A stretch of 47,572 bases of DNA from an uncultured Ruminococcus sp. Lineage in GTDB: Bacteria > Bacillota > Clostridia > Oscillospirales > Acutalibacteraceae. Each line of letters begins with the position of its first letter. Position 1 is the first letter of the stretch. The position numbers and the translations under genes were made by a program. The notes under the pieces were generated by a model. The model had not been told where the DNA came from, searched no databases, and saw only the letters and a list, made by a program, of their open reading frames with translations. Location of the stretch: contig CAZTWO010000001.1 of NCBI GenBank assembly GCA_964617965.1, forward strand, positions 4,457 to 52,028, read 5' to 3'. Positions 1,077 to 41,957 of the stretch are shown here, piece by piece.

Positions 1077-3710
1077 ATGGAATGGACGGGACTTAACGAG
1101 CTTCGTGAAAAGTACCTCAGATTTTTTGAGAGCAAAGGACATCTGCGTCTTGACAGCTTTTCGCTTGTTCCGCAGGGCGACAAAAGCCTTCTGCTCATAA
1201 ACGCCGGCATGGCGCCCATGAAAAAATATTTTACCGGTGAAGTCACTCCCCCTTCAAAGAGAGTTACCACCTGTCAGAAGTGCATTCGTACTCCCGATAT
1301 TGAAAGAGTCGGTCACACCGCGCGTCACGGCACATTTTTCGAGATGCTCGGCAACTTCTCATTCGGTGACTATTTTAAGCATGAGGCCACTGCGTGGGCA
1401 TGGGAATTCTGCACCAAAGAAATGCAGATGGACCCCGAAAAAATATATGTAAGCATTTATCTTGACGATGACGAGGCATATGACATCTGGACAAAGGAAG
1501 TCGGCGTAAAGCCCGATCATATGGTTCGTTTCGGCAAGGAAGACAACTTCTGGGAGCACGGTGCGGGTCCCTGCGGCCCTTGCTCGGAGCTTTATTATGA
1601 CAGAGGTCCGGAGCACGGCTGCGGCAAACCCGACTGCAAGGTCGGCTGTGACTGCGACAGATATGTTGAGTTCTGGAACCTTGTTTTCACTCAGTTTGAA
1701 AATGACGGCAACGGCAATTACACACGCTTAAAGCACCCCAACATCGACACCGGTATGGGGCTTGAGAGACTTGCGTGCATTTCTCAGGGGGTTGACAATC
1801 TTTTTGAGGTTGACACGGTTCGCAACATTATGAAGCGTGTTATGGAAATCGCCGGCGTAAAATATCACGAGGACGAGAAAAAGGATATTTCTCTTCGTGT
1901 TATTACCGACCATATCCGTTCAACAGCAATGATGATTTCAGACGGCGTTATGCCCTCAAACGAAGGCAGAGGCTATGTTTTAAGACGACTTTTAAGACGT
2001 GCCGCACGTCACGGCAGACTTTTAGGGATTGACAAGCCCTTCCTTGCAGACCTTTGCGAAACGGTTATAACCGAGAGCGGAAAGGCATACCCGGCACTTG
2101 TCGAAAAGCATGACTATATTGTTAAAATTATATCCGTAGAAGAGGACAGCTTCAACCGCACACTCGATTCGGGACTTAAGCTTCTTGAAGAAATGATCGA
2201 AAAGAGTGAAGGCAAGACGCTTTCGGGTGCGGATGCGTTCAAGCTTTCCGACACATTCGGATTCCCCATTGATCTTACAAAAGAAATTCTCGAAGAAAAG
2301 GGCATGGATGTCGACGAGGACGAGTTTAATGCACTTGTCAAAAAGCAGAAGGACACCGCAAGAAGCGCAAGAAAAGACGCGGGTGCGGACGCATGGAAAG
2401 ACACCGGCGCAACGCTCAAGGGAATTCCGGCTACCGTGTTTACGGGGTACGAGACAACAACCGACAGCGGAAAGGTTCTCGCTATCCTGAACGGCAAGGG
2501 TGAAAAGATTGACAGTGCGGATGCAGATACCGAGGCGACACTTATTCTTGACAAGACCTGTTTTTATGCTGAGAGCGGCGGACAGACGGGTGACAGAGGC
2601 AAGATAAAGGGCAACGGCTTTGTGTTTAAGGTAACCGACACCACCAAAAATTCAAACGGACTGTTCTTCCACAAAGGCAATGTTATTGACGGTGCTGTGG
2701 CTGTAAATGATGAAGTCACGACAAATGTATGTCCTCACTGCAGAGCGGCAACGGCTCGCAACCATACGTCGGCTCACCTTTTGCAGGCGGCACTCAGAAA
2801 GACATTCGGCAGTCATATTGAACAGGCGGGCCAGCTTGTAAACCGTGATGTCATGCGTTTTGACTTTACACATTTCGAGGCTCTTACAAGCGAGCAGATA
2901 GCAGAGATTGAACATAATGTAAATGAAGTAATTCTGTCCGCAGTTGATGTTGTTACAGAAGAAAAAACTCTTGCGGAAGCTAAAGCGATGGGCGCTATGG
3001 CTCTGTTCGGAGAAAAATACGGCGACAAGGTTCGTGTCGTAAACATCGGCGGCTATTCGCTGGAACTTTGCGGCGGCACACACGTAAAGAACACGGGCGA
3101 AATAGGAATGTTCAAGATAATTTCCGAGTCGTCGGTTGCATCGGGTGTCAGAAGAATTGAAGCCGTAACGGGACTTAACGCTCTTAAGTACGTAAATTCG
3201 GTATGCGAAAACGCACTTAAGGCGGCATCGGTTCTTAAATGCGGCACGGTTGAAGCACTGCCCGACAAGGCGGCTGCAATTCAGACCGAGCTTAAGACAG
3301 CCGAAAAAGAGATTGAAAAGCTCAAGGGTGAAATCGCATCCGCAAAAGCCGGTGATCTGTTTAAGACAGTCGGCGAAATCAACGGTATAGCGATAAAGAC
3401 TGCCGACATGGGCGAAGCGGACGCAAACGCGCTCAGAACAATGCTCGACAGCGCAAAGGATGACGACAGCGTTGTTATGGTAGCCGGCAAAAATTCCGAA
3501 AAAGGCACCTGCTCGTTTGCGTGTGCATGCGGCAAAAACGCAGTCGCGAAGGGTGCTCACGCAGGCAACATAGTTCGTGAAACCGCAAAAATAGCAGGCG
3601 GCGCAGGCGGCGGCAAGCCCGACAGCGCTATGGCAGGCGGCAAGGATATTACAAAAATAGGCGAAGCTCTTGAAGCAGTCAAGGGCATTGCGGAGAAGTT
3701 TATAAAATAA
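1077..3710 (+). CDS. alaS: Alanine--tRNA ligase
   Basis: 877-aa ORF with the typical AlaRS N-terminus (LRFFESKGH, FTNAGM-like INAGMAPMKKYF, FEMLGNFSFGDYFK), the editing-domain HTSAHLL motif and a C-terminal DHHA1-like region. Confidence 0.97.
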   Translation: MEWTGLNELREKYLRFFESKGHLRLDSFSLVPQGDKSLLLINAGMAPMKKYFTGEVTPPSKRVTTCQKCIRTPDIERVGHTARHGTFFEMLGNFSFGDYFKHEATAWAWEFCTKEMQMDPEKIYVSIYLDDDEAYDIWTKEVGVKPDHMVRFGKEDNFWEHGAGPCGPCSELYYDRGPEHGCGKPDCKVGCDCDRYVEFWNLVFTQFENDGNGNYTRLKHPNIDTGMGLERLACISQGVDNLFEVDTVRNIMKRVMEIAGVKYHEDEKKDISLRVITDHIRSTAMMISDGVMPSNEGRGYVLRRLLRRAARHGRLLGIDKPFLADLCETVITESGKAYPALVEKHDYIVKIISVEEDSFNRTLDSGLKLLEEMIEKSEGKTLSGADAFKLSDTFGFPIDLTKEILEEKGMDVDEDEFNALVKKQKDTARSARKDAGADAWKDTGATLKGIPATVFTGYETTTDSGKVLAILNGKGEKIDSADADTEATLILDKTCFYAESGGQTGDRGKIKGNGFVFKVTDTTKNSNGLFFHKGNVIDGAVAVNDEVTTNVCPHCRAATARNHTSAHLLQAALRKTFGSHIEQAGQLVNRDVMRFDFTHFEALTSEQIAEIEHNVNEVILSAVDVVTEEKTLAEAKAMGAMALFGEKYGDKVRVVNIGGYSLELCGGTHVKNTGEIGMFKIISESSVASGVRRIEAVTGLNALKYVNSVCENALKAASVLKCGTVEALPDKAAAIQTELKTAEKEIEKLKGEIASAKAGDLFKTVGEINGIAIKTADMGEADANALRTMLDSAKDDDSVVMVAGKNSEKGTCSFACACGKNAVAKGAHAGNIVRETAKIAGGAGGGKPDSAMAGGKDITKIGEALEAVKGIAEKFIK

Positions 3711-3714
3711 AGTG

Positions 3715-4018
3715 AGCAAGGAGCAAGGAGCAGTTGGCTTCGCATAAGACAAACAAGCTGAACAAGATGCATTGTTCATTGCTAATTGCAGATTGGCAAA
3801 AAAAGTGAGTAAAGAGCAAGGAGCAGTTGGCTTCGCAATGTTGTTTTACATAACAATTCAGTTTTGCAAAAGGCGAAGCAATATAATTCAAGGCACGCTG
3901 TGCCTTCCGACATTATGCATTATGCATTCTACATTATGCATTCTTCATTGATTGGTCTGAGTTGAAATTGTTAATTGCTAATCAACATTGCTCATTGCTC
4001 ATTGCTAATTGCTAATTG
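3715..4018 (-). repeat. Modular intergenic element in reverse orientation, one partial copy and one complete copy. Contains AGCAAGG arrays (3715-3735, 3815-3827), a reverse core (3815-3908), an ATTATGC/ATTCTAC array (3912-3950) and an ATTGCTA/ATTGCTC array (3967-4018).
   Basis: Direct reading. Hairpin AAGGCAC-GCT-GTGCCTT at 3890-3906. The GCTTCGC(3830-3836)/GCGAAGC(3873-3879) stem encloses a 36-nt loop. The array starts 4 nt after the alaS stop codon. Confidence 0.9.
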
Positions 4019-4382: not shown

Positions 4383-4550
4383 ATGATATATCGCTGACGC
4401 GATATGATATATTGCTGACGCAATATGATATACTTGCTTCGCAAGCATGATATAATTTCCGTTCCGTCATATGCTGTTAGGCTTGTATCACCGCACGCAG
4501 TGCGATATCATATCGAAGATATATCACCCGTTCCGACAGGAACGGATATC
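4383..4550. repeat. Array of ATGATATA-type spacers alternating with short hairpins of differing sequence, located in the HIT 3' region
   Basis: Units ATGATATAT-CGCTGACGCG-AT (4383-4403), ATGATATAT-TGCTGACGCA-AT (4404-4424) and ATGATATAC-TTGCTTCGCAA-GC (4425-4446). Further hairpins CGCAC-GCA-GTGCG (4492-4504) and CGTTCC-GACA-GGAACG (4529-4544) are flanked by GATATCAT motifs. Confidence 0.8.
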
Positions 4551-4554
4551 ATTG

Positions 4555-4585
4555 AAAAAAGCGTTCCGTTAAGGAACGCTTTTTT
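4555..4585. terminator. Bidirectional rho-independent terminator between the HIT gene (+) and tRNA-Leu (-)
   Basis: A6 run, stem GCGTTCC (4561-4567), loop GTTAA, stem GGAACGC (4573-4579), then a T6 run. Confidence 0.75.
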
Positions 4586-4587
4586 CA

Positions 4588-4674
4588 TGGTGCCGGTGAC
4601 CGGGCTTGAACCGGTACGATATTGCTATCACGGGATTTTAAGTCCCGGGCGTCTGCCAATTCCGCCACACCGGC
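4588..4674 (-). tRNA. tRNA-Leu, anticodon UAA, type II with long variable arm, CCA encoded
   Basis: The reverse complement folds as a cloverleaf. Acceptor GCCGGTG/CACCGGC, anticodon stem CGGGA/TCCCG with loop CTTAAAA, variable arm GATA-GCAA-TATC, T-arm ACCGG-TTCAAGC-CCGGT, discriminator A plus CCA. Confidence 0.9.
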
Positions 4675-8982: not shown

Positions 8983-9080
8983 AGTTAATCCTCCAATCCA
9001 TACTGATATAATACAATCATTTTAGTATAAAATCAATATAATAAATTTATTTTTTGTCGGGAATAAGAAGCAAGTGGCCG

Positions 9081-9129
9081 GGGGTCAGGGGCCAGGGGCC
9101 AGGGGCCAGGGGCCAGGGGCCAGGGGCCA
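9081..9129 (+). repeat. Perfect heptamer array, GGGGTCA followed by six GGGGCCA
   Basis: Direct reading: seven consecutive 7-bp units, i.e. seven GGGG tracts separated by 3-nt loops. Confidence 0.95.
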
Positions 9130-9141
9130 GTGACTGCGGAA

Positions 9142-9569
9142 GTCCTGCGGACTTGGATTATATAGCTCTGCAGTCTTTTACCCTGATTTCCTGTAAAAGT
9201 ATCACAATTCGCGTAGCTTTATAATCCAAAACGCAAAGCGTTTTCCTTAATTATGCATTATGCATTCTGCATTCTACATTGTTTTGTCCTGCGGACTTGG
9301 ATTATATAGCTCTACAGTCTTTTACCCTGATTTCCTGTAAAAGTATCACAATTCGCGTAGCTTTATAAATCAAAACGCAAAGCGTTTTCCTTAATTATGC
9401 ATTATGCATGCTGCATTCCACATTGTTTTGTCCTGCGGACTTGGATTATATAGCTCTGCAGTCTTTTACCCTGATTTCCTGTAAAAGTATCACAATTCGC
9501 GTAGCTTTATAATCCAAAACGCAAAGCGTTTTCCTTAATTATGCATTATGCATTCTGCATTCTACATTG
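9142..9569. repeat. Three tandem copies of a 144-bp unit (9142-9285, 9286-9429, 9430-9569). Each unit is built from a forward half-core, a CTTTTAC/GTAAAAG hairpin, a TCACAATTCGCG module, a reverse half-core and an ATTATGC/ATTCTGC heptamer array.
   Basis: Direct reading. The period of 144 was measured from GTCCTGCGG at 9142, 9286 and 9430. Copies differ by a few substitutions (for example CTCTGCAG vs CTCTACAG, and ATAATCCAAAACG vs ATAAATCAAAACG). Confidence 0.93.
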
Positions 9570-9606
9570 AAAAAAACTCCACACTCCACTCTTTTCCGAT
9601 AAAGTC

Positions 9607-9635
9607 TTTACAAATCCCAAATTTCAGAGTAAAAT
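9607..9635 (+). promoter_or_regulatory. Candidate sigma-A promoter for topB (TTTACA-N17-TAAAAT)
   Basis: Hexamers at 9607-9612 and 9630-9635 with a 17-nt spacer, about 40 nt upstream of the topB ATG. Confidence 0.45.
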
Positions 9636-9673
9636 TTTATGGCATACAATCACTAATGAATGGGAAGAAAATA

Positions 9674-11794
9674 ATGAAAGTAATTATAGCGGAGAAGCCG
9701 AGCCTTGCGAGAAACATATCGGGCGCAATCGGAGATATGAAGAAAAATTCCGGATTTTTCACCGGGAAGGATTATATCGTTACATGGGCGTTCGGTCACC
9801 TGTTTTCGCTGTGCGATATAGAAGACTACACAGGCAAAACCTCCACCGGCTTCTGGAGCATGGAAAATCTTCCGTGCTTTCCGAAAGAATTCAGATTCAA
9901 GCTTAAAAACGGTGCGGACAAAAAGCCCGATGCAGGCATTATAAAGCAGTTTGAAACGATTAAGGCGTTGTGTCTTCGTGATGATGTCGACACGATAATA
10001 AACGCCGGGGACGCCGACCGAGAAGGTGAAATTATAGTTCGCCTTTGTGTCAGCAACGCTTTCGAAGGAAAAGAGCAAAAAAGCTTTATGCGTCTGTGGC
10101 TCCCCGATCAGACACCCGAGACCATAAGAGCAGCTCTTGACGACCTTAAAAGCGAGGACGAATACAATTCACTCGCAAATGAAGGATTTGCCAGAACATA
10201 CACAGACTGGCTTTACGGCGTAAATCTGACACGGCTTGCAACGCTCAAAACAGGCGTTCTGCTTCGTGTCGGCAGAGTTATTGTGCCGATAGTCAAGGCG
10301 ATTTATGACAGAGATATGGCGATAAAGAATTTTGTGCCCGACATTTACTACGCACTTGTTTCAAACGCCGAGACAAACGGAGAAAAAATCGAGCTTGTGT
10401 CAAAGCACAAATTCCCGAAAGAGAAGCTTAACACGGCAAAGCGTGCGTGCGACAAATTAAATGCTCAGACGGCGACGGTAACGGCGAAGAAAACGAAAAA
10501 GGATACCCTTAAGCCGCCGAAGCTTTTTTCACTCTCGAAGCTTCAGAGCTATCTCGGAAAAAAGTACAAGATGAGCATGGATGTATCTCTTGCGACTGTT
10601 CAGAAGCTCTATGAAGCGGGATATGTCACCTATCCCAGAACAAACTCCGAATATATGGCAACAGCCGAAAAAGACAAGGTTAAAAAAATAATAGATATAG
10701 TAAGCAAAAAAGGGTATCCCGTAAAATTCCGTGACGGCAAAAACATATTCGATGACAGCAAAATAGAATCGCACTCGGCACTTACTCCGACATATAAAAT
10801 CCCGTCGCCCGACTCGCTGAATGAGACCGAAAAACAGGTATATTCGGCGATTATGCGAAGATTTGCGGCGGTATTCTGCGCCGAGGACTGCGTTGCACAG
10901 AAAAACGAGCTTACTATAAGCGTCGGCGAATGCGAGGACTATACACTCAAAGGTACGGTAATTCTTGTACCCGGCTGGACAAAATTCGAGGAGCCGTCAT
11001 CCACGATTAAGGTTCTGCCCTCACTCGAAAAGGGCGACACGGTCAACATTCACTTTGAGCCGAAGGAGAAAAAGACTTCTCCGCCAAAGCACTATACGAT
11101 TGAGACACTAAATAACTATCTTAAAAATCCGTTCAGAACCGAAAAAGCCGAGGCTGCCGAAAAGGATGACGACACCGAGGACTACAAGGCGATTTTCGAG
11201 GGGCTGGAGCTTGGAACGGAAGCCACACGTACGGGCATAATCGAGAACGCCATAAAGAGCAAATATATTGAGCTAAAAAAGGATGTATATACTCTTCTGC
11301 CCGGCGGACAGTATCTTATCGAGTCGCTGAGTGCCATGGGCATCAGCATGGATAAATATAAGACAAGCACCTTGGGTCAGGCTCTTAAAAAGGTTTACAG
11401 AGGCGAAATAACGGTTGACGACAGTGTAAGACTCGCCTGCAACGAGATAAAAGAAGCGTTTGACTCCCCCGACAACAACACGTCGGAGAAATGCTACACC
11501 GGATTTTACGGTGAAAAAATAGGCGTCTGCCCAAAATGCGGAAAAGATGTCACAAAAAACAGATATTCTTTTTCGTGCGCGGGGCAAAAATCGGGCGAAT
11601 GTGATTTTAAGATTCCGACCGTTCTGTGCAAGAAGGCAATACCGGTGTCGGCGGCAAAATCGCTTATCGAAAACGGCAGGTGCGAAAAGCTTACGGGGTT
11701 CATTTCTAAGGCGGGAAAGATGTTTGATGCGGAGCTTATGCTTGAGGATTTCAATGTAAAATTCAATTTCAATAATTCGAGGCGTGAAAATTAA
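9674..11794 (+). CDS. topB: DNA topoisomerase III (type IA)
   Basis: ORF 9548..11794. The start is placed at the ATG giving MKVIIAEKPS, the canonical Toprim N-terminus. Also present: DADREGE, the YVTYPRT active-site Tyr region and C-terminal Cys4 zinc-ribbon motifs (CPKCG...C..C). Confidence 0.92.
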   Translation: MKVIIAEKPSLARNISGAIGDMKKNSGFFTGKDYIVTWAFGHLFSLCDIEDYTGKTSTGFWSMENLPCFPKEFRFKLKNGADKKPDAGIIKQFETIKALCLRDDVDTIINAGDADREGEIIVRLCVSNAFEGKEQKSFMRLWLPDQTPETIRAALDDLKSEDEYNSLANEGFARTYTDWLYGVNLTRLATLKTGVLLRVGRVIVPIVKAIYDRDMAIKNFVPDIYYALVSNAETNGEKIELVSKHKFPKEKLNTAKRACDKLNAQTATVTAKKTKKDTLKPPKLFSLSKLQSYLGKKYKMSMDVSLATVQKLYEAGYVTYPRTNSEYMATAEKDKVKKIIDIVSKKGYPVKFRDGKNIFDDSKIESHSALTPTYKIPSPDSLNETEKQVYSAIMRRFAAVFCAEDCVAQKNELTISVGECEDYTLKGTVILVPGWTKFEEPSSTIKVLPSLEKGDTVNIHFEPKEKKTSPPKHYTIETLNNYLKNPFRTEKAEAAEKDDDTEDYKAIFEGLELGTEATRTGIIENAIKSKYIELKKDVYTLLPGGQYLIESLSAMGISMDKYKTSTLGQALKKVYRGEITVDDSVRLACNEIKEAFDSPDNNTSEKCYTGFYGEKIGVCPKCGKDVTKNRYSFSCAGQKSGECDFKIPTVLCKKAIPVSAAKSLIENGRCEKLTGFISKAGKMFDAELMLEDFNVKFNFNNSRREN

Positions 11795-11876
11795 TTAATT
11801 CTTAATAAGAACAATATTGAAACATCCCCTTTTCGGTTGTATTATATTCAGAGAAATTTTTTCGGGAGTGACAGAT

Positions 11877-13382
11877 ATGAAAAACACATTTAAAAAATCT
11901 GTGTGCTGCCTTTTAGCGGCTGTGTCGCTGATGCTGACGGTATTGCCCGCCTTTGCGGAAGAAACCGGAACGACAGCCGAAGAAACGGCAACGATAGCGG
12001 AAGAGACGGCAACTGCGGCGGAAGAGACCGGGACAACGGCAGAAGAGACCGAAACGGACACGGATACGACAACGGCAAAAGAGACAACGACCGAAGCTCT
12101 CACCGAGCATATTTTTGCCGATGCGGACGAAAACGGCGATGTAAACGTAACGGACGCAAGAATGATTCTGCGTTTTGCCGTAAAGTTAGACAAATACGAC
12201 GAGAAGAAAATCGAATACTACGATCTTGACAACAACAATTCGGTTGATGTCATGGATGCGAGAATTGCCCTCAGAATTGCGGTAAAGCTCCCTGCGGACT
12301 ATGTCGAACCCGAAACAGAGGAAGAAACCGAGGAAGAGACCACAACCGTTCCCGTGACCACAACCGAACCGACCACAAAGAAGCCCGAACCGACTACAAA
12401 AAAGCCCGAGCCGACCACAAAGAAGCCGGAACCGACAACACAGCCGACTCCCGTCAAGAAAAATCCCACAAAAGCGGAATATGCAAAATCGATGGGCAAC
12501 AGCGTGTGGACAGGTCACATTGATAATACGATGAAGTCATTATGCAACACCATAGGCACAAGATATGTCGGTTCAAACAACTGCTTCACGGCTAAAAACT
12601 GGATAAAGAAACAGCTTTCAAGCTACGGATACAGCAATGTTACGGAACAATATGTAAGCGTAACAAGCAAAGGCTATACTTCATATAATCTGATAGTAAA
12701 AATTCCGACAGCGAAAAAGAATCCGAAAATAATCACATTCTCGGCACACTATGACTGCAGCTCGCAGAGTGTCGGCGCGGTGGATAACGCCTCGGGTGTC
12801 GCGGCAATTCTGGAACTTGCGAGAATAGCAAAGAGCAAAAATATGGACTTCGGCGTGGAGCTTCGTTTTGCGTTCTTCACGGGTGAGGAAAACGGCTACT
12901 ACGGCGCGTATAAATACCGTTCTTCACTGTCGCAGGACGAAAAGAACCGCCACATAGTTTTCTTTAATATCGACATGGCGGCACCGTCAACGGCCGATAA
13001 AGAGAGCTATCTGTGTGTAAGCACCGAGCCTGTCACACAGAACTATCGGTGGAGAAAGGCGTACAACAACGCCGGCAGCAACGCCGTAAGAGAAGCACAT
13101 AACATTATGGGCAGCTGCGGTGAAAAGGCATTTTATTCGCCGATTGCGGCAGGCATGCACGACATAGTCCCGTTCAGAAAAGCGGGACTTCCCGCAATTA
13201 CGCTGTCATGGAGGCGTGTAAGCTCTTCGGGTAAGGGCAACGATTACAGCCTTACATCCCCGTCGGTTATTCACACCTATAAAGACAACCTGAATTATGT
13301 AAACTATAACGCACTGTACAAGACGGTAAGACTTGCCGCCGCATCAATGGGCGTGCTTACATACGGGTATGTCTATTCATAA
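11877..13382 (+). CDS. Secreted M28-family metallopeptidase with an N-terminal dockerin module and Thr/Glu/Pro-rich repeat linkers
   Basis: Signal peptide MKNTFKKSVCCLLAAVSLMLTVLPAFA (ATG 11877, GGGAG RBS). Two dockerin-type Ca-binding repeats (DENGDVNVTDARMILRFAV, DLDNNNSVDVMDARIALRIAV). M28 motifs SAHYD, GAVDNASG and FFTGEE.GYYGA. Confidence 0.85.
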   Translation: MKNTFKKSVCCLLAAVSLMLTVLPAFAEETGTTAEETATIAEETATAAEETGTTAEETETDTDTTTAKETTTEALTEHIFADADENGDVNVTDARMILRFAVKLDKYDEKKIEYYDLDNNNSVDVMDARIALRIAVKLPADYVEPETEEETEEETTTVPVTTTEPTTKKPEPTTKKPEPTTKKPEPTTQPTPVKKNPTKAEYAKSMGNSVWTGHIDNTMKSLCNTIGTRYVGSNNCFTAKNWIKKQLSSYGYSNVTEQYVSVTSKGYTSYNLIVKIPTAKKNPKIITFSAHYDCSSQSVGAVDNASGVAAILELARIAKSKNMDFGVELRFAFFTGEENGYYGAYKYRSSLSQDEKNRHIVFFNIDMAAPSTADKESYLCVSTEPVTQNYRWRKAYNNAGSNAVREAHNIMGSCGEKAFYSPIAAGMHDIVPFRKAGLPAITLSWRRVSSSGKGNDYSLTSPSVIHTYKDNLNYVNYNALYKTVRLAAASMGVLTYGYVYS

Positions 13383-13464
13383 ATACTGATACTTGATAAT
13401 TCTCCGCTTGCATGATATACTGTAACATATATTTTCACGAGGAAATCAGAGCTATACTTTTAAT

Positions 13465-13614
13465 GCATAATGTAGAATGCATAATGCATAATATCGGAAG
13501 TCCTGCGGACTTGGATTTATAAGCTGCGCAGACATTAAAGCAAATCAACACAGACAACATTTTTGCTTTGCGAAGCTTCACTGCTCCTTACTCCCTGCTC
13601 CTTGCTAACTGCTC
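13465..13614 (+). repeat. Modular intergenic element, forward. GCATAAT/GTAGAAT array (13465-13492), then a core with a 35-nt insert in the second stem and a CTCCTT-rich tail (13496-13614).
   Basis: Direct reading. Hairpin AAGTCC-TGC-GGACTT at 13498-13512. The tail reads CACTGCTCCTTACTCCCTGCTCCTTGCTAACTGCTC. Confidence 0.9.
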
Positions 13615-14908: not shown

Positions 14909-15039
14909 GGGGTCAGGGACCGGGAACCGGGGGCCGGGGACTGATGAAGTCACCGGGTGATCGGGAGTTGCATAACAATTAGCAATTAGCAGTTAGCAAT
15001 TAGCAATATCGGAAGTCCTGCGGACTTGGATTTGTAAGG
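14909..15039 (+). repeat. Modular intergenic element, forward with a truncated core. GGGGTCA/GGGACC-type array (14909-14941), AGCAATT/AGCAGTT array (14975-15007) and a half-core (15010-15039).
   Basis: Direct reading. The array starts on the nucleotide after the glyA TAA. Hairpin AAGTCC-TGC-GGACTT at 15013-15027. Confidence 0.9.
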
Positions 15040-15071
15040 ATTACACTAAAAAACGGCAGAGGGAGTAATTT

Positions 15072-16718
15072 ATGAATAAGGAAAAGAGAAGTTTGCTTTT
15101 GGACAATGCGAAAAATCATATTGACAAACAAAGGCTTATGTACTGCTTTGTGCTTACGTTTGTGATAGGTTTAATCTGTCATGCGTATGCGTATCTCAAT
15201 TATCAGCCGAGCCATGACTCACTGTATGAGGCGGTTTCAAATTCCGATTATTGGGAAATGAAAATTGAGTACGGCAGATACATAAAGCCTTTGTGTGATA
15301 TGGTGCTCGGAAAGTTTGCGAGCTTTCCGTGGATAAACGGCCTTATTGCGCTTTTCTGGCTGTCTTTGTCGGCATATATTGTCACGGATATGTTCAGAAT
15401 CGAAAGACGGCGTGATATAGGTCTGTTCTGCGGAATACTTACAACCAACATTACGGTTATAAGCATGTCGGCGACGTATTTTCAGGATCTGAGCGCAAAT
15501 ATGTTTGCACTGTTTCTGTCGCTTGTCGGCACGCATATATGGTTCGACATGACAAACAGGTACGATGACCTCGGCGTCAAAAAGAAGATTCTGCTCTCGC
15601 TTGCGGCCGCCATTTGTGTATTTGTCTCAATGGGAATTTATCAGGCGTTTGTAAGCGTGCTTATTACACTTGTGCTGATAATTTCTATAATGAGACTGTT
15701 AAACGAAGAGGCCGAATGCAAAAAGGTATGGACTTACGACTTCTGGGGTGCAGGCTCGGTTATTGTCGGAAGTGTGCTGTATTACGGTGTATACAAGCTT
15801 GTTTTGCTTGTGACCGGAATTGAAATGAACACCTCTAACTATAACAGTCTTGGAAAGCTGTTTTCAAGTGAGCTGTCGGTACCGGAGCTCCTGTCCGAGA
15901 CTTTTTCATATGTCTTCAAATACATATTTACGGCACCCTATTACACCTATCCGACATATGTAACTTCCGCGATAAGCATAGCTATATTTGCCGCAATGGT
16001 TATCTGCTTTATAATAGCTGTCAGAAATCTGAGAAAGAACAAAGCGAAGAAAAGCACAAGAATATCGGTTGTATTTTTCTTTCTGATGATTCCGTTTGCG
16101 ATGAATATAGTAAATCTGCTTGGCGGCGTAACGCACGCCGTTATGATTTATTCATTCTGGTTTACTTATATTATAGCGATACTGTTTACAAAGCATTTTA
16201 CGAAAATAAAAAGCAAAATGTTCTTTGAAAGAGTAACCGCACTGCTTTTGTGCTGTCTGATTTTCGCAAATATACAGGTTGCAAATGCCGCGTATGTAAA
16301 GAAAACAACGGAACAACAGGCGACACTTTCGGTCATGACAAGAGTGCTTGACAGAATTGAATCCATTGACGGCTATGAGCCCGGCGTGACACCCGTAGCG
16401 TTTATGGGAACCCCTAACAAATATCTTACGGAATATGAGGAATTTGAAGATCAGATTTTCATAACAGGTGTAGGATATAAGTCGGTGATAACATATCCGA
16501 ATATTTACAAAAAGTATTTCAGCATGATTCTTAAGGTTGATATAAATGTCGTGAAGAACAAAGAGGCAGTTGAGATTTATGATAAAAACAATCTTGAAAA
16601 TATGCCGGCGTTCCCCGATAATGACAGCATTAAGGTGATTGACGGAACTGTTGTTGTAAAGTTTTCGGATAGGAAGGATAAGTCGTCGACGGAGAAAAAT
16701 GACGAGGCAAACAGTTAG
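15072..16718 (+). CDS. Polytopic integral membrane protein, possibly of the GtrII/Glucos_trans_II glucosyltransferase-domain type
   Basis: 548-aa ORF with AGGGAG RBS. It has many hydrophobic segments followed by a soluble C-terminal domain. The family assignment is from general resemblance only. Confidence 0.7.
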   Translation: MNKEKRSLLLDNAKNHIDKQRLMYCFVLTFVIGLICHAYAYLNYQPSHDSLYEAVSNSDYWEMKIEYGRYIKPLCDMVLGKFASFPWINGLIALFWLSLSAYIVTDMFRIERRRDIGLFCGILTTNITVISMSATYFQDLSANMFALFLSLVGTHIWFDMTNRYDDLGVKKKILLSLAAAICVFVSMGIYQAFVSVLITLVLIISIMRLLNEEAECKKVWTYDFWGAGSVIVGSVLYYGVYKLVLLVTGIEMNTSNYNSLGKLFSSELSVPELLSETFSYVFKYIFTAPYYTYPTYVTSAISIAIFAAMVICFIIAVRNLRKNKAKKSTRISVVFFFLMIPFAMNIVNLLGGVTHAVMIYSFWFTYIIAILFTKHFTKIKSKMFFERVTALLLCCLIFANIQVANAAYVKKTTEQQATLSVMTRVLDRIESIDGYEPGVTPVAFMGTPNKYLTEYEEFEDQIFITGVGYKSVITYPNIYKKYFSMILKVDINVVKNKEAVEIYDKNNLENMPAFPDNDSIKVIDGTVVVKFSDRKDKSSTEKNDEANS

Positions 16719-16962
16719 CAAGGAGCAAGGAGCAAGGAGCAAGGAGCAGTTATCGGTGAACAGTTACCTGTGACCGAAGGATTATCTTTATTGACACATA
16801 AATGCCACTTTTACTTACTTTTTCTATATAACAAAAAAAGGACAGCCTATGCAGATAAGCTGTCCTTTAGTTTTCTCTTTTTGCAGCCGCAACGCTTTAT
16901 AATCCAAAACGCCATGCGTTTTCCTTATCCTCCGGCCACTGGATACTGACCACTGAATATGG
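16717..16962 (-). repeat. Modular intergenic element, reverse. AGCAAGG x4.5 array (16717-16749) overlapping the upstream stop codon, a long central insert, a reverse half-core (16883-16924) and a CCACTGG/ATACTGA array (16935-16962).
   Basis: Direct reading. Hairpin AAAACGC-CAT-GCGTTTT at 16906-16922. The central insert carries the terminator at 16837-16868. Confidence 0.85.
16837..16868. terminator. Bidirectional terminator between the membrane-protein gene (+) and yajC (-)
   Basis: Stem AAAGGACAGC (16837-16846) pairs with GCTGTCCTTT (16859-16868) around a 12-nt loop. An A-run lies upstream and T-rich sequence downstream. Confidence 0.65.
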
Positions 16963-33691: not shown

Positions 33692-33770
33692 TTTTCTTTC
33701 CTCCTGAGAGCTGAATGCTCGAATATGATTTTTTTGTCAAAATTTTAGTCGGTGAAAACAGCGGACAAAT

Positions 33771-34084
33771 TAAGAATTAAGAATGCATAATGCATAATGT
33801 CGGAAGACACTGCGTGTCTTGAATTTATAGAAGCTTCGCGGGGCTGAACTTTTGTGTAAGCCGGTAATTTCTTTCGACATATTTATGACAATGCAGAATG
33901 TAGAATGCAGAAGCAGAATGAAGAATGTAGAATGTAGAATGCATAATGCATAATGTCGGAAGACACTTCGTGTCTTGGATTATAGAAGCTTCGCAAGGCT
34001 AAATTTTATACAAACCGGTAGTTTATTTCGATATATCTGCTATAATGCAGAATGCAGAATGTAGAATGTCACAATTCGCGTGTG
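33771..34084 (+). repeat. Two tandem copies (period 156 bp) of the modular element, forward. Heptamer arrays (33771-33798, 33891-33955, 34045-34068), cores (33802-33890, 33958-34044) and a TCACAATTCGCG module (34069-34081).
   Basis: Direct reading. Hairpins AAGACAC-TGC-GTGTCTT (33804-33820) and AAGACAC-TTC-GTGTCTT (33960-33976). The period was measured from TCGGAAGACAC at 33800 and 33956. Confidence 0.9.
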
Positions 34085-34879: not shown

Positions 34880-35011
34880 ATTAACTCATTCGCCCCCATT
34901 CTCGTATATGATATATTAGTTGCGGCGAAAAAGCAAGAACAAAAGCGACAAAACGCAAAAAAGGGTTGATTTTTATTTTTATGTGTGTTAACATTGTCTG
35001 CGTTATAAGTC

Positions 35012-35260
35012 AAACGCCGAGAACGGAAGAGTAGGCCTGAAATTTTCGTCAGAGAGTATGTGCCGTCGGCTGAAAGCACATTCGTTAAATTTTTTGCTGA
35101 AGTTCACCCGGGAGCGGTGCCGCCGAAAAAAGAGTAAGCGGCAACGGCCGATCACCGTTAAAGGATTGCCGAGAGTCCGTCCGTTATCAAAAAAAGACGG
35201 AAACAAGGGTGGTACCGCGGAGCTGATTCTTCGTCCCTTTTTGTGGGATGAAGTTTTTTT
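35012..35260 (+). promoter_or_regulatory. T-box riboswitch leader with a Phe (UUC) specifier, controlling pheST
   Basis: Stem I elements GCCGAGAACGGAAGAGTA (K-turn/AGTA), AGAGA bulge (about 35050) and distal CTGAAAGC. Specifier GAAG-TTC-A (TTC at 35103-35105). T-box AACAAGGGTGGTACCGCG (35202-35219). Terminator CTTCGTCCC/GGGATGAAG plus T7 (35229-35260). Confidence 0.9.
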
Positions 35261-36355: not shown

Positions 36356-38743
36356 ATGGATCTTTCAAGAAGATGGCTGCTTGATTATGTTGATGTCGCC
36401 GATATAGACGACAAGACCTTTGCGGATGAAATGACACTGTCCGGTTCAAAGGTTGAATGCTACGGCAAAGAGGGCGAGGAGCTCAAAAATATTGTCGTGG
36501 GCAAAATTCTCTCACTCGAAAAACACCCCGACTCCGACCATATGTGGATTTGCATGGTTGATGTCGGCGCAGATGCTCCCCTTCAGATAGTCACGGGCGC
36601 ACAGAATCTGTCTGTCGGCGATTATGTTCCGACCGCACTTGACAATTCGGTTGTTCACGGCGGCAAAGAGATAAAGTCCGGCAAATTAAGGGGCATTGAA
36701 AGCTGCGGCATGCTGTGCTCATTAGGCGAACTCGGACTTACAAAGCACGACTTCCCCTATGCGATAGAGGACGGCATTTTCGTACTCGGCGACGACTGCG
36801 ACAGAACTCCCGGCAAATGCATCAAAGAAGCAATCGGCTTAAACGATACGGTTACCGAATTTGAAATTACACCCAACCGCCCCGACTGTCTGTCGGTTGT
36901 GGGTCTCGCACGTGAAGCCGCCGTTACATTCGGCAGAAAGCTTACCGAACCCAAGACGACATACAAAACCGTCGGCGGTGACGTTAAGGAGCTTTTGCAC
37001 TCCGTTACAATCGAAGCGGCAGACAAGTGCTTCCGTTATGCCGGCGCGGTTGTAAAGAATGTTCGTGTAAAGCCCTCGCCCAAGTGGATAAGAGAGAGAC
37101 TCAGAGCGTGCGGCGTTCGTCCCATAAACAACATTGTCGATATCACGAACTTTGTAATGCTTGAATACGGTCAGCCCATGCACGCCTTCGACTTAAGATA
37201 TCTTGACGGCGGCAAGGTTATCGTCAGAAACGCAAAAGAGGGCGAAAGCATAACAACACTTGACGGTGTCGAAAGAAAGCTCTCCCCTGAAATGCTCGTT
37301 ATAGCGGACGAAAACAAGCCCGTAGCCGTTGCAGGTGTAATGGGCGGCGAATATTCGGGCATCATGGACGACACAAACACAATAGTATTTGAATCGGCAT
37401 GCTTCTATGGCCCGTCAATCAGAAAGACGGCAAAGAAGCTCGGTATGCGTACAGAAGCATCGGGCAGATTCGAGAAGGGTCTTGACCCCGACGGATGCCT
37501 TAAGTGCCTTGACAGAGCACTCTCACTTGTTGAAGAGCTTGACGCGGGCGATATAGTTGAGGGCGTTGTGGATATGTATCCCAATCCCAAGAAGCAGACT
37601 GTGCTTGACTTCTGCCCCGACTGGGTAAACAACTTCATCGGCATTAACGTAAGCGCAGACGAGCAGAAGAAAATTCTGACCGACCTTGAATTTGAGGTTA
37701 AGGACGGCAAGATATATGTTCCGTCATTCAGAAGCGACGTTGAGCATAAGGCCGATATATCCGAAGAAATTGCCAGATTCTACGGCTTTGACAAAATAGC
37801 GGTTCGTGACCTTCAGGGTGAAGCGGACGGCGGACTTAACGACTTCCAGAAGTTTGAGAAGCTTATTGTCAATAAGTGCATTTCACTCGGTCTGTCCGAG
37901 ATTGTCACATATTCGTTCATAAGCCCCAAGGCTTACGACAAAATAAATCTTGCCGCGGATTCACCGCTGAGAAAGTGCGTTGTCATATCTAACCCCTTAG
38001 GCGAAGACACGGGCGTTATGCGTACATCGATGATTCCGAGCATGATGGACACACTCTCAAGAAACTACAACAACAGAAACCTGTCCGCATATCTTTTCGA
38101 AAACGGCAAGGTATATATTCCGAAGGGTGTCGATGAACTGCCCGACGAAAACAGAACAATCGCTGTCGGTATGTACGGAAACGGCGCTGACTTCTTTGAG
38201 CTCAAGGGCAAAACAGAAGCACTGTTCGACTGTGCGGGCATTGCGGAATACGATGTTGAACCGGTAACGGACGACCCGACATTCCACCCCGGCAGAACAG
38301 CCGAATTTACCGTTAACGGCGAGCGTATCGCAATACTCGGTGAAATTCATCCGGATGTAGCCGAAAACTATTCGATAGACACAAAGGTTTATGTGGCAAG
38401 TGTTTCGCTTGACAAGCTCTATAAGCTTTCGAACATCAAGAAGACATATAAGCCCAGCCCACGCTTCCCCGCTCTTACAAGAGACCTGGCTGTAGTGTGT
38501 GACAGAATTACACCCGTACTTAAGCTCGAAAAGGTTATTGCAAAGGCTGTCGGTGAGACACTCGAGCATATTTCGCTGTTTGACGTATATCAGGGCGAAC
38601 AGATCGAAAAGGGCAAAAAGAGTGTTGCGTTCAGCCTGCGTCTGAGAGCCGCCAACCGCACAATGACAGACGACGAAGCGGATGCTGCGATGAAGAGAGC
38701 TGTTGAGGCGCTTGAGAATATAGGGGCAAGCCTGAGAAAATAA
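36356..38743 (+). CDS. pheT: Phenylalanine--tRNA ligase beta subunit
   Basis: 795-aa ORF with an N-terminal tRNA-binding domain, then B3/4, B5 and FDX-ACB domains. It lies 14 nt downstream of pheS. Confidence 0.97.
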   Translation: MDLSRRWLLDYVDVADIDDKTFADEMTLSGSKVECYGKEGEELKNIVVGKILSLEKHPDSDHMWICMVDVGADAPLQIVTGAQNLSVGDYVPTALDNSVVHGGKEIKSGKLRGIESCGMLCSLGELGLTKHDFPYAIEDGIFVLGDDCDRTPGKCIKEAIGLNDTVTEFEITPNRPDCLSVVGLAREAAVTFGRKLTEPKTTYKTVGGDVKELLHSVTIEAADKCFRYAGAVVKNVRVKPSPKWIRERLRACGVRPINNIVDITNFVMLEYGQPMHAFDLRYLDGGKVIVRNAKEGESITTLDGVERKLSPEMLVIADENKPVAVAGVMGGEYSGIMDDTNTIVFESACFYGPSIRKTAKKLGMRTEASGRFEKGLDPDGCLKCLDRALSLVEELDAGDIVEGVVDMYPNPKKQTVLDFCPDWVNNFIGINVSADEQKKILTDLEFEVKDGKIYVPSFRSDVEHKADISEEIARFYGFDKIAVRDLQGEADGGLNDFQKFEKLIVNKCISLGLSEIVTYSFISPKAYDKINLAADSPLRKCVVISNPLGEDTGVMRTSMIPSMMDTLSRNYNNRNLSAYLFENGKVYIPKGVDELPDENRTIAVGMYGNGADFFELKGKTEALFDCAGIAEYDVEPVTDDPTFHPGRTAEFTVNGERIAILGEIHPDVAENYSIDTKVYVASVSLDKLYKLSNIKKTYKPSPRFPALTRDLAVVCDRITPVLKLEKVIAKAVGETLEHISLFDVYQGEQIEKGKKSVAFSLRLRAANRTMTDDEADAAMKRAVEALENIGASLRK

Positions 38744-38745
38744 TT

Positions 38746-38889
38746 AGAAATTAGCAATTAGCAGTTAGCAATGAGATCGAAAAAATGCATAATGTAGAAT
38801 GCATAATGCAGAATGTCGGAAGTCCTGCGGACTTGATTTATATGGCTTCGCGAAATGCCACACTGTTGTCTGCTCCGTAATTTTGCTCC
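38746..38889 (+). repeat. Modular element, forward. AGAAATT/AGCAATT/AGCAGTT array (38746-38773), GCATAAT/GTAGAAT/GCAGAAT array (38787-38814) and a core (38818-38889).
   Basis: Direct reading. Hairpin AAGTCC-TGC-GGACTT at 38820-38834. The array phase runs into the pheT TAA stop (38741-38743). Confidence 0.9.
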
Positions 38890-38931
38890 TTTATAAAAAC
38901 TTCATGATAAAACGATAATTCAAATCAAAAC

Positions 38932-38972
38932 CTGCCGTGTTGAGGATTTTCTTCGCACGGCAGTGTTTTTTT
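38932..38972 (+). terminator. Rho-independent terminator of pheST
   Basis: Stem CTGCCGTG (38932-38939) pairs with CACGGCAG (38956-38963), followed by a T-run (38965-38972). It lies downstream of the repeat element, which therefore falls inside the predicted 3' UTR. Confidence 0.75.
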
Positions 38973-38986
38973 GTGTGATAATTGTG

Positions 38987-39070
38987 CTTAGCTTTTGCGA
39001 AGCTTTATAAATCCAAGGCACACAGTGCCTTCCTTAGCCCCCGACCCCCGGCCCCTGACTCCCGGCCCCT
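38987..39070 (-). repeat. Modular element, reverse. Core (38987-39033), then a C-rich heptamer array (39034-39070) that is the complement of the GGGGNCN type.
   Basis: Direct reading. Hairpin AAGGCAC-ACA-GTGCCTT at 39015-39031. The GCTTAGC-TTTT-GCGAAGC stem has one mismatch. Confidence 0.9.
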
Positions 39071-39444: not shown

Positions 39445-39556
39445 AAGCTTCTTTGATGGTTTGCAGAACAGAAAAACCGGTATTTTGCGAAGCTTTATAA
39501 TCCAAGACACAAAGTGTCTTCCGACATTATGCATTCTTAATTATGCATTCTCAATT
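39445..39556 (-). repeat. Modular element, reverse. Core (39445-39522) and an ATTATGC/ATTCTTA array (39526-39556).
   Basis: Direct reading. Hairpin AAGACAC-AAA-GTGTCTT at 39504-39520. The AAGCTTC/GAAGCTT stem encloses a loop of about 37 nt. Confidence 0.9.
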
Positions 39557-41842: not shown

Positions 41843-41846
41843 GCTG

Positions 41847-41957
41847 TCAGGGGTCAGGGGCCGGGGGCCGGGGGCCGTTATCCAGTGGCCAGTATCCAGT
41901 GGCCAGTATCCAGTGGCTGAGGAAGACACTGCGTGTCTTGGATTTATATAGCTTCGC
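41847..41957 (+). repeat. Modular element, forward with a truncated core. TCAGGGG/CCGGGGG array (41847-41877), CCAGTGG/CCAGTAT x5 array (41882-41916) and a half-core (41921-41957).
   Basis: Direct reading. Hairpin AAGACAC-TGC-GTGTCTT at 41923-41939. The element starts 4 nt after the pdxK stop. Confidence 0.9.

Follow-up and report, generated by a model that had tools for sequence, protein, structure and literature searches.

Short hairpins with interchangeable, compensated stems are modules of a mosaic intergenic repeat in an uncultured Ruminococcus sp.

Results

Two hairpin units flank the pheT terminator

We analysed a stretch of 47,572 nt from an uncultured Ruminococcus sp. (Acutalibacteraceae, Oscillospirales, Bacillota; contig CAZTWO010000001.1), in which a short hairpin recurs between the genes. 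This stretch is hereafter the window, and all window coordinates refer to it. Its genes encode alanyl-tRNA synthetase (AlaRS), a GH95 protein, a melibiase, a topoisomerase, serine hydroxymethyltransferase (SHMT), the PheST synthetase behind a T-box, and IreB. The T-box leader is at 35010-35241 (+ strand, 114.7 bits), upstream of pheS-pheT. The focal region, 38818-39033, holds two of the small hairpins and lies in the spacer between pheT and ireB.

A heptamer array of AATTAGC flavour runs from the pheT stop codon (38742-38776, +; period 7 and 4.4 copies in Tandem Repeats Finder, TRF), and an array of AATGCAT/AATGTAG units, also detected by TRF, continues to the junction of GTC with GG (38784-38817, +). 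GG and hairpin A follow (38818-38834, +; AAGTCC TGC GGACTT at 38820-38834), and then a linker GATTTATAT and an arm GGCTTCGC (38835-38851, +). The intrinsic terminator of pheT (CTGCCGTG...CACGGCAG and a T run; 38932-38972, +) is present in all strains and ancestral, and the two units flank it. The second unit is on the minus strand and comprises the arm GCGAAGC with linker TTTATAAATCC (38997-39014), hairpin B with CC (39015-39033; AAGGCAC ACA GTGCCTT at 39015-39031) and a TRF-detected CCCCCGA/CCCCGGC array (39034-39070) that is G-rich on the strand where hairpin B reads forward. As a preliminary description of this DNA had it, the two hairpins are 180 nt apart, opposite in orientation and different in stem. 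The predicted RNA fold of the region (dG -93.4 kcal/mol, z = -7.0) keeps both small hairpins local and pairs the arms around the terminator, 38835-38851 with 38997-39013.

The hairpin family exceeds chance

The preliminary description listed 18 copies in the window, and each of those coordinates does have a hairpin (18/18). The four stem types, the variable loops and the truncation of copies 9286 and 9430, in which TT replaces the 5' AA, are likewise seen in the sequence. Its general formula, GGAAG-stem-loop-stem'-CTTGG in all 18 copies, is too strict: GGAAG-N11-CTTGG occurs literally only 4 times in the window (0.09 expected; 4 reached in 0 of 100 shuffles), the remainder are variants of the family, and several copies have one G only 3' of the stem. 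An outer AAG/CTT around an inner 4 bp fails for two classes, GTCC, with a 6-bp stem (AAGTCC/GGACTT), and AACGC, in which the third pair is A:T (AAAACGC/GCGTTTT). The GCAC, ACAC and AACGC classes have 7-bp stems. Perfect AA-N4/5-loop3-N'-TT hairpins give 22 matches in the window, made up of 16 family members (4 of them counted at both stem lengths) and 2 unrelated hairpins; 200 dinucleotide shuffles gave 2.25 ± 1.7, with a maximum of 7. The hairpin observation is real and beyond chance.

The hairpin belongs to a larger oriented unit

The hairpin is a module of a larger mosaic intergenic repeat and not a stand-alone motif. In every copy the hairpin is bordered on one side by a heptamer tandem array and on the opposite side by a conserved linker followed by the arm; the oriented unit reads array – (GTC/TAA/TGA)GG – hairpin – G(G)ATT(T)ATA(A/T) – (A)GC[T/C/A][T/C/A]CGC, with the hairpin flanked GG...GG and GCTTCGC the basic arm. 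In the commonest form the complement of the arm lies 38-42 nt downstream and is followed by a second, reverse-oriented hairpin and another array; in a short form it comes after only 5 nt (GCTTCGC CTCTT GCGAAGC) and another array follows, and in a third it comes after a longer insert. Arm partners are 30-49 nt apart in 45 of 60 cases.

Two units in inverted orientation make a doublet of about 110 nt, and 24 of these were found by their arms alone. The gap from hairpin to hairpin is 72-75 nt in 13 of 14 perfect cases, and wherever a doublet has two hairpins the stem types are heterotypic (22/22; about 27% homotypic expected by chance, P about 0.001). The DNA fold gives z = -2.4. The arms pair over 11-15 bp (about 12) in 20 of 24 doublet folds, and the small hairpins do not pair with each other, each folding locally. 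The doublet spacer lacks both a conserved sequence and any independent fold (mean z = -0.24). In 18 of the 24 doublets the central position of the arm core GCTNCGC/GCGNAGC holds a mismatch or a wobble (T.G, C.A, A.A, T.T).

The hairpins are not intrinsic terminators, as they are followed by GGATT(T)ATA or by CC plus heptamers and not by a U run. Only the 38820 copy passes a lax terminator scan, and the true pheT terminator is the separate hairpin at 38932-38972. Stem type is weakly linked to the 5' junction (permutation p = 0.0025) and to the 3' linker variant (p = 0.0005). Whether it also follows the heptamer flavour had been raised in the preliminary description, and we found no association (permutation p = 0.086).

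The window contains 25 period-7 arrays, which fill its intergenic spacers and often start at a stop codon. Their flavours include AATGCAT/AATGTAG, AATTAGC, GGGGNCN, CCAGTGG/CCAGTAT, CAAGGAG, AATTAAC and GGAGTGT; examples outside the focal region are at 137-199, 318-373, 3714-3732, 3966-4018, 9076-9130, 14916-15007, 16717-16748, 33890-33955 and 41846-41917. Array density per 10 kb is 5.3 in the window and 5.9 in the lineage loci, as against 0.24 in unrelated genomes and 0 in viral contigs. Of 145 copies, 90% have a 5' array that is purine-rich when read on the hairpin-forward strand (mean 0.60, p = 4e-29), and this holds whatever the flavour; the unit therefore has strand polarity. The G-rich flavours fit the G4N3 quadruplex pattern.

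Two other readings of the arrays were considered and dropped. The AATGCAT/AATGTAG arrays (38765-38800, 39526-39554) contain periodic -10-like hexamers, CATAAT and TAGAAT; promoter-like matches number 10 in 900 bp against 2.3 expected, but they are absent from other flavours. A HutP/TRAP-like NAG-N4 reading is ruled out by the G-rich flavours, which have no AG.

Stems covary across strains and species

We compared the window with contigs and metagenome-assembled genome (MAG) loci of related strains (numbered with the prefix L) and with two MAG species. The exact IreB and HIT proteins are present in many gut-type metagenome contigs and MAGs, and an exact-protein look-up with SHMT returned near-clonal strains only. 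When one genome per species was scanned for the arm pattern, only the MAGs CAVFUV01 ('bacterium H07613-L1_cleanbin_000012') and CAVFPQ01 ('Acutalibacteraceae bacterium H07627-L1_cleanbin_000007') had more than one match among those listed. Isolated matches in Rubripirellula, Bacillus thuringiensis, Pedobacter, Lachnospiraceae and others are in unrelated sequence without the hairpin and are attributed to chance; in viral contigs all 19 of 19 arm-pattern matches lack the hairpin, most of them coming from one unrelated conserved phage gene. Identity to the window is 99.8-99.9% for L001 and L004, about 96% for L002, L003, L005, L006, L008 and CAVFUV, and about 88-93% for L007, L009 and L010. Since L007 and L114 come from one MAG, and the alaS-HIT spacer of L114 is similar to that of the CAVFPQ locus L113, the group of L007, L009 and L010 looks, by sequence, like the CAVFPQ species.

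Only the 3' flank (G(G)ATT(T)ATA ... AGCTTCGC, with at most 2 substitutions) was used to collect copies for the covariation analysis from all of these sources, so that stem content cannot bias their selection, and 144 are distinct. The anchor has 158 unique contexts, chance matches included, and 127 of the 158 have perfect stems. By their 5' halves these are AAGTCC (44 copies), AAGGCAC (30), AAGACAC (28), AAAACGC (21), AAAACAC (3), AAGTTC (1) and AAGGTAC (1), and a separate scan added one copy of AAGACGC. Anchoring on the 5' heptamer junction instead recovered the same stem types, with an arm after each.

When all 144 copies were aligned together with MAFFT (A1), the 6-bp GTCC class fell out of register, so formal pair counts are limited to 71 distinct copies of the 7-bp classes (alignment A2), the GTCC class being handled by script. 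Standard pairs fill 97.2% of stem cells in A2, compared with 88.5 ± 0.6 in shuffles (observed value reached in 0/500), and 19-51% of cells pair in slid-partner controls for the hairpin helix. Cells changed on both sides of the stem number 64 against 20.4 expected. The pairs that covary are pair 3 (GC 49, AU 20), pair 4 (AU 42, GC 25) and pair 6 (AU 53, GC 18), and RNAalifold, run independently, predicts the same helix. Divergence from the type consensus is 0.019 per nt in stems and 0.213 per nt in loops, so that stems are about 11-fold better conserved, and they change mainly through compensated pairs.

The preliminary description had called the stem changes fully compensatory. That holds within the window, but about 10% of copies in the wider sample carry a G.T, A.C or other stem mismatch. 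Hybrid stems such as AAGACAC/GTGCCTT exist, and the AACGC class tolerates 4-nt loops. As A.C mismatches are at least as frequent as G.T, the small hairpin carries no strand-specific wobble signal. The broader claim, that structure is kept while sequence changes, is supported by the 97.2% pairing, the double changes, the stem/loop divergence and an in-place compensated switch described below. Its argument against simple repeat decay also stands, the copies collected by their 3' flank showing no abundance of uncompensated mismatches. Structural constraint on the hairpin is thus supported. Independent compensatory events are few, with about 5-7 stem variants, and the stem types behave as propagated subfamilies exchanged between copies, so that gene conversion contributes alongside selection.

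Modules turn over at fixed loci

The 47.6-kb window has 18 copies, and the 0.62 Mb examined has 184 perfect hairpins; elements number about one per 2.6 kb. The hairpins are essentially extragenic (the median open frame across a hairpin is 196 nt, in 85% coding sequence): 63 are in tandem spacers, 17 in convergent ones and 12 in divergent ones, and in tandem spacers 36 are opposite to transcription and 20 in the same direction. Contig ends hold 40 of 148 unique hairpins (contigs L011-L082 of CAVFUV01 and CAVFPQ01), and short Logan contigs (L104 and L105) end about 90-170 nt from SHMT. Evidently, the repeats break short-read assemblies of this lineage.

Elements are identical among near-clonal strains (99.8-99.9% identical). 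At about 96% identity the same spacer is rebuilt, with hairpin type and heptamer flavour swapped independently at orthologous sites. At the pheT-ireB site CCCCCGA arrays accompany a GCAC hairpin, ATTCTTA arrays (4 versus 3 units in L002 and L003) a duplicated GCAC hairpin, or CTCCTTG arrays an AACGC hairpin, and its upstream GTCC unit is, by strain, present, absent, duplicated or placed after a different array. Relative to the window one unit is duplicated in L006, and hairpin plus array are duplicated in L002 and L003. At the position orthologous to 38817/38818, L005 and L008 have an insertion of about 85 bp (3555-3640 in those loci) exactly between the array (…AATGTC) and the foot of the GTCC hairpin, with the GG replaced; it carries two other small hairpins, AAAAATCAT…ATGATTTTT and GGACCG…CGGTCC.

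Downstream of ireB, the window has AAGACAC AAA GTGTCTT where L002 and L003 have AAGGCAC ATC GTGCCTT, in flanks and heptamers that are otherwise orthologous; this is therefore a pair compensated in place. The same position has a GTCC-type hairpin in L005 and in the sister species. After 41842 the hairpin is kept and the array flavour switches, with one GGGGCCG unit more in L006 than in the window. The alaS-HIT spacer ranges from 103 to 388 bp and contains a short form, a decayed hairpin or unrelated GC-rich DNA. The last of these, in the CAVFPQ species (L111-L115, 615-1000), is about 390 bp of partly self-complementary sequence in place of the window's elements, and ends in a degenerate arm (TTTGCGAAGCTCGACAG…). 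The sister species, only about 88-93% identical, has elements at the same loci, and orthologous spacers differ greatly, by module replacement, duplication and decay.

Other units and repeats in the window

Two single units follow the focal region. One (39487-39556, -) consists of an arm GCGAAGC, linker TTTATAATCC, an ACAC hairpin at 39504-39520, CC and ATTATGC/ATTCTTA heptamers, and its orthologues in other strains have GCAC or GTCC hairpins; the other (41846-41955, +) has GGGGCCG and CCAGTGG/CCAGTAT arrays, an ACAC hairpin at 41923-41939, then GGATTTATAT and an arm AGCTTCGC. Near the start of the window are two short-form units on the plus strand. At 137-266, AATTAGC and GGGGTCG arrays precede a GTCC hairpin (204-218), GATTTATATA, a second hairpin GCTTCGC CTCTT GCGAAGC (229-247) and a CTAACTG/CTCCTTG array; at 318-451, an AATGCAT/AATGTAG array precedes a GTCC hairpin (375-389), the same second hairpin (399-417) and a CTCCTTG array. 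The reverse unit at 3714-3949 (-) has GAGCAAG arrays, GCTTCGC...GCGAAGC arms, a GCAC hairpin (3890-3906) and CC GAC with an ATTATGC array.

At 9076-9569 (no strand assigned) a GGCCAGG array leads into a 144-bp doublet repeated three times (TRF period 144, 3.0 copies, 96%, at 9142-9569), each in the order GTCC hairpin, arm, 39-nt spacer, arm, AACGC hairpin, ATTATGC array. The GTCC hairpins are at 9140-9154 and, truncated, at 9286-9298 and 9430-9442; the AACGC hairpins are at 9228-9244, 9372-9388 and 9516-9532. A long-loop unit at 13461-13614 (+) joins an AATGCAT array, a GTCC hairpin (13498-13512), GGATTTATAA, GCTGCGC ... GCGAAGC and a CTCCTTG/CTAACTG array. GGGACCG and AATTAGC arrays with a GTCC hairpin (15013-15027) and a degenerate arm lie at 14916-15040 (+), and a reverse unit at 16885-16950 (-) has an arm GCAACGC, TTTATAATCC, an AACGC hairpin (16906-16922), CC and a CCACTGG-type array. 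Of two further ACAC units on the plus strand, that at 33768-33835 joins an AATTAAG/AATGCAT array, the hairpin (33804-33820), GAATTTATAG and AAGCTTCGC, and that at 33890-33992 an AATGCAG/AATGTAG array of 9.6 units, the hairpin (33960-33976), GGATTATAG and AAGCTTCGC.

A second, unrelated repeat family lies at 4383-4580 on the minus strand, beside tRNA-Leu(TAA) (4588-4674). It consists of a 21-nt tandem unit ATGATATATTGCTGACGCAAT (x3.4) with GATATCA...CCGTTCC hairpins, overlaps a Gut-1 RNA match (4480-4554, 60.3 bits, gathering score 50), and varies in the number and order of its units between strains (L107, L108, L111-L113). The N-terminal part of a Peptidase_M28 gene (open reading frame 11817-13382) contains coding period-21 repeats at 11955-12440, GCGGAAGAGACCGCAACGACA (x5.2) and CCGAACCGACCACAAAGAAGC (x3.7).

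Searches for a cognate enzyme, RNA family or precedent

A whole-window scan with Rfam 15 at gathering thresholds found only the T-box, Gut-1 and one tRNA, and nothing at the elements; in E-value mode on two element-rich regions the best hit, RsmY, reached 18.8 bits where the gathering score is 57. In about 0.45 Mb of lineage sequence, which is part of the genomes, tblastn with IS200 TnpA and E. coli RAYT (REP-associated tyrosine transposase) queries gave a best E of 0.17, and the open reading frames at that site look unrelated by eye; neither a scan for open reading frames with HUH and Y motifs, nor open-reading-frame clustering for a multicopy family or parent insertion sequence, found a candidate there. 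No phage match to the element was found, nor, in full-text literature searches, any description of such elements in Clostridia, Oscillospirales or Acutalibacteraceae. Integron attC, terminator and operator readings were rejected on orientation, flanks and copy number.

Discussion

Likeness to extragenic palindromes and heptamer repeats

The closest parallels are the repetitive extragenic palindromes (REPs) of E. coli and the bacterial interspersed mosaic elements (BIMEs) that they form, together with the REP-associated Y1 transposase TnpA-REP/RAYT (PMC3333891, PMC2817692). Both systems consist of high-copy extragenic palindromes in a few discrete types whose differences are complementary, as in the E. 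coli types y, z1 and z2, which differ at positions that stay complementary (PMC3333891). BIMEs are heterotypic inverted pairs, y with z1 or z2, joined by variable linkers (PMC3333891), and here too inverted pairs of two different types are joined by a variable linker and occur in both orientations to genes. The copy number of the tandem BIME-2 varies between strains (PMC3333891), as do the tandem multimers of this lineage, of which the 144-bp doublet x3 at 9142-9569 is an example. The sequences are unrelated, however, and the elements described here have a heptamer array per unit, a Firmicute host and no RAYT found in the partial genomes.

REPINs, the REP doublets of Pseudomonas, are inverted copies set at a constant 71 or 110 bp, with spacers that vary and changes that compensate each other (PMC3116915). 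The parallels with those of Pseudomonas fluorescens (PMC3116915, PMC3337134) are that spacing is fixed (72-75 nt here), that spacer length is constant and spacer sequence poorly conserved, that the doublet folds into a long hairpin, that changes are compensatory and that elements persist at orthologous loci. In a REPIN, however, both REPs come from one group and pair with each other, whereas here the hairpins differ in type and fold on themselves and only the arms pair, and neither excision intermediates nor RAYT linkage was found in the partial genomes.

Heptamer repeats have been described as GGGNATC/GGGGA(C/T)T in Xanthomonas and Nostoc (PMC4692102) and as TAACTGA in Beggiatoaceae, cyanobacteria and Bacteroidetes (PMC4679880). 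Like ours, they are non-coding period-7 arrays of 2-10 units near stop or start codons, with G-rich flavours that fit G4N3 and unit numbers that vary between strains. They resemble the array module only: here there are many flavours per genome, the flavour at a locus is replaced wholesale between strains, and the array is joined in phase, with fixed strand polarity, to a hairpin and an arm. Several other repeats invite comparison. The short tandemly repeated repetitive (STRR) sequences of cyanobacteria are heptanucleotide tandem repeats, the pneumococcal BOX element is a modular Gram-positive repeat (boxA-boxB(n)-boxC), and Elhai et al. (2008) reportedly described very small dispersed repeats of Nostoc. 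BOX and the Nostoc repeats share with the element a mosaic intergenic make-up, variable internal tandem units, stable predicted folds and the lack of a protein, but their unit sizes and sequences are unrelated, and we know of no heterotypic hairpin pair or heptamer array in BOX.

What kind of element is it?

We consider the hairpin to be the palindromic core of an extragenic mosaic repeat that resembles REPs, BIMEs and REPINs and belongs to an uncultured Acutalibacteraceae gut bacterium, with a probability of roughly 60%. The element would be recognised or propagated as a folded single strand, most likely single-stranded DNA and possibly also read-through RNA, and copies that lose pairing would not be maintained. 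The few stem types would be interchangeable variants, and the use of two different types per doublet would keep the hairpins from pairing mutually and avoid a long perfect palindrome; the heterotypic rule is most simply explained as keeping each small hairpin folded on itself. Shared flanks may allow ectopic recombination or gene conversion to reshuffle types and flavours, or a putative REP-type Y1 transposase may do so, and ectopic recombination through shared flanks is the simplest explanation of module swapping at fixed loci. The mismatch in the arm core recalls the stem mismatch that E. coli TnpA-REP needs and may be its nearest analogue here, although this may be coincidence.

Several points weigh against a REP-like element. 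No Y1/RAYT-like gene and no multicopy transposase was found in the roughly 0.45 Mb of partial lineage genomes, and the orthologous spacers compared show no clean empty site, target duplication or defined boundaries, so that they do not show mobility. The hairpin is 15-18 nt with a perfect 6-7-bp stem, whereas REP is a 30-40-nt imperfect palindrome with an internal mismatch that TnpA-REP requires (PMC3333891); the 5' GTAG of REP is absent from the alignments, where the flank is (T/A)(C/A)GG or AAGG. Heptamer arrays and their strand polarity have no known counterpart in REP/BIME biology. To our knowledge, REP and RAYT systems have been described mainly from Proteobacteria. Finally, in the four doublets whose direction of transcription is known, the sense strand is the one on which the arm wobble reads G.U (4 versus 0), a weak hint, with n = 4, that RNA also matters. 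In working and organisation the element is like a BIME or REPIN, but because it has neither GTAG nor the 30-40-nt imperfect palindrome, and no RAYT gene was found in the partial genomes, we do not assign it to the REP-RAYT family. What is new is the host lineage, the short perfect hairpin with its interchangeable types, the strict rule that doublets are heterotypic, and the attachment of polar heptamer arrays that switch flavour.

That hint bears on an account in which the stems are selected as RNA, the element being a cis-acting structured module of mRNA 3' or 5' untranslated regions that serves as 3'-end stabiliser, processing site or protein platform. Arrays begin at stop codons or only a few nt away, so many units are transcribed; the focal region has the strong predicted RNA fold given above, stems tolerate four single G.U wobbles, the sense-strand arm wobble holds in 4/4 informative doublets, and REPs are known to stabilise mRNA (PMC3479197). 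We nevertheless judge this account unlikely. Units face both ways relative to transcription (the 36 opposite and 20 same noted above) and occur in divergent spacers and downstream of terminators, G.T mismatches are no commoner than A.C ones, which would be G.U only when read from the opposite strand, no Rfam family matches, and one copy per 2.6 kb is far above any known regulon. Single-stranded DNA is favoured over a purely RNA role because both orientations occur and half-elements lie downstream of terminators. Pairing could also arise without functional selection, through intrastrand template switching or short-tract conversion from the hundreds of other copies, the four types being circulating donors. 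The swapping of whole hairpin types in unchanged flanks, the hybrid stems, the independent assortment of modules and the small number of perfect stem variants (about 5-7) all fit such correction. Conversion alone, however, leaves unexplained why loops escape homogenisation (0.213 versus 0.019 per nt), why doublets are always heterotypic, and how the new paired variants AAAACAC, AAGTTC, AAGGTAC and AAGACGC arose and spread, and we regard it as quite improbable as the whole explanation.

The null in the preliminary description, four clonally amplified subfamilies with no structural constraint, taken here as those of a miniature inverted-repeat transposable element decaying neutrally, would account for stems in a few discrete types and for arms that behave like terminal inverted repeats. 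It is already largely refuted: 97% of cells pair over 71 distinct copies despite highly diverged loops, spacers and flanks, one orthologous element shows the in-place compensated change, the three variable pairs occur in intermediate combinations, no parent insertion sequence or multicopy open reading frame was found, and the same loci are occupied in the sister species. Loop and spacer divergence also argues against very recent copies. We give hardly more credence to sites read as duplex DNA, whether palindromic operators of dimeric regulators or nucleoid and topology sites. The half-sites are indeed perfect inverted repeats at a fixed 3-nt spacing, one tandem array lies upstream of the topoisomerase gene (9548-11794), and BIMEs bind gyrase and IHF (PMC3333891), but a duplex reader gives no reason for half-sites to change together, at least 4 half-sites would need at least 4 proteins, the 4-nt loops of the AACGC class alter half-site spacing, and the density is far above that of operators. 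More speculatively, the element might be a new class of intergenic mosaic distinct from REP/RAYT, with hairpin, arm and strand-polar heptamer array as its working unit, a view that we hold to be rather doubtful. In that case a putative hairpin-specific activity would make or renew the arrays beside the hairpin, perhaps through slippage or templated synthesis where the strand is nicked or a fork stalls at the foot of the hairpin, and it would also exchange the hairpin cassettes of fixed loci. The intergenic DNA of this lineage would then be under active rewriting by a mechanism not yet described, through which the unexplained heptamer repeats known from cyanobacteria, Xanthomonas and Beggiatoaceae could also be approached.

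Implications

In practical terms, MAG assemblies of this group are fragmented by the elements, as the 40 of 148 copies at contig ends indicate. REPs, BIMEs and REPINs are among the most abundant and least understood non-coding sequences of bacteria and are known almost only from Proteobacteria. A gut Firmicute lineage with such an element about every 2.6 kb would widen the phenomenon. The question of what reads the hairpin could then be put in a compact system, where the stem types serve as natural compensatory mutants. Two unexplained classes of repeat, extragenic palindromes and heptamer arrays, are tied together here in one architecture.

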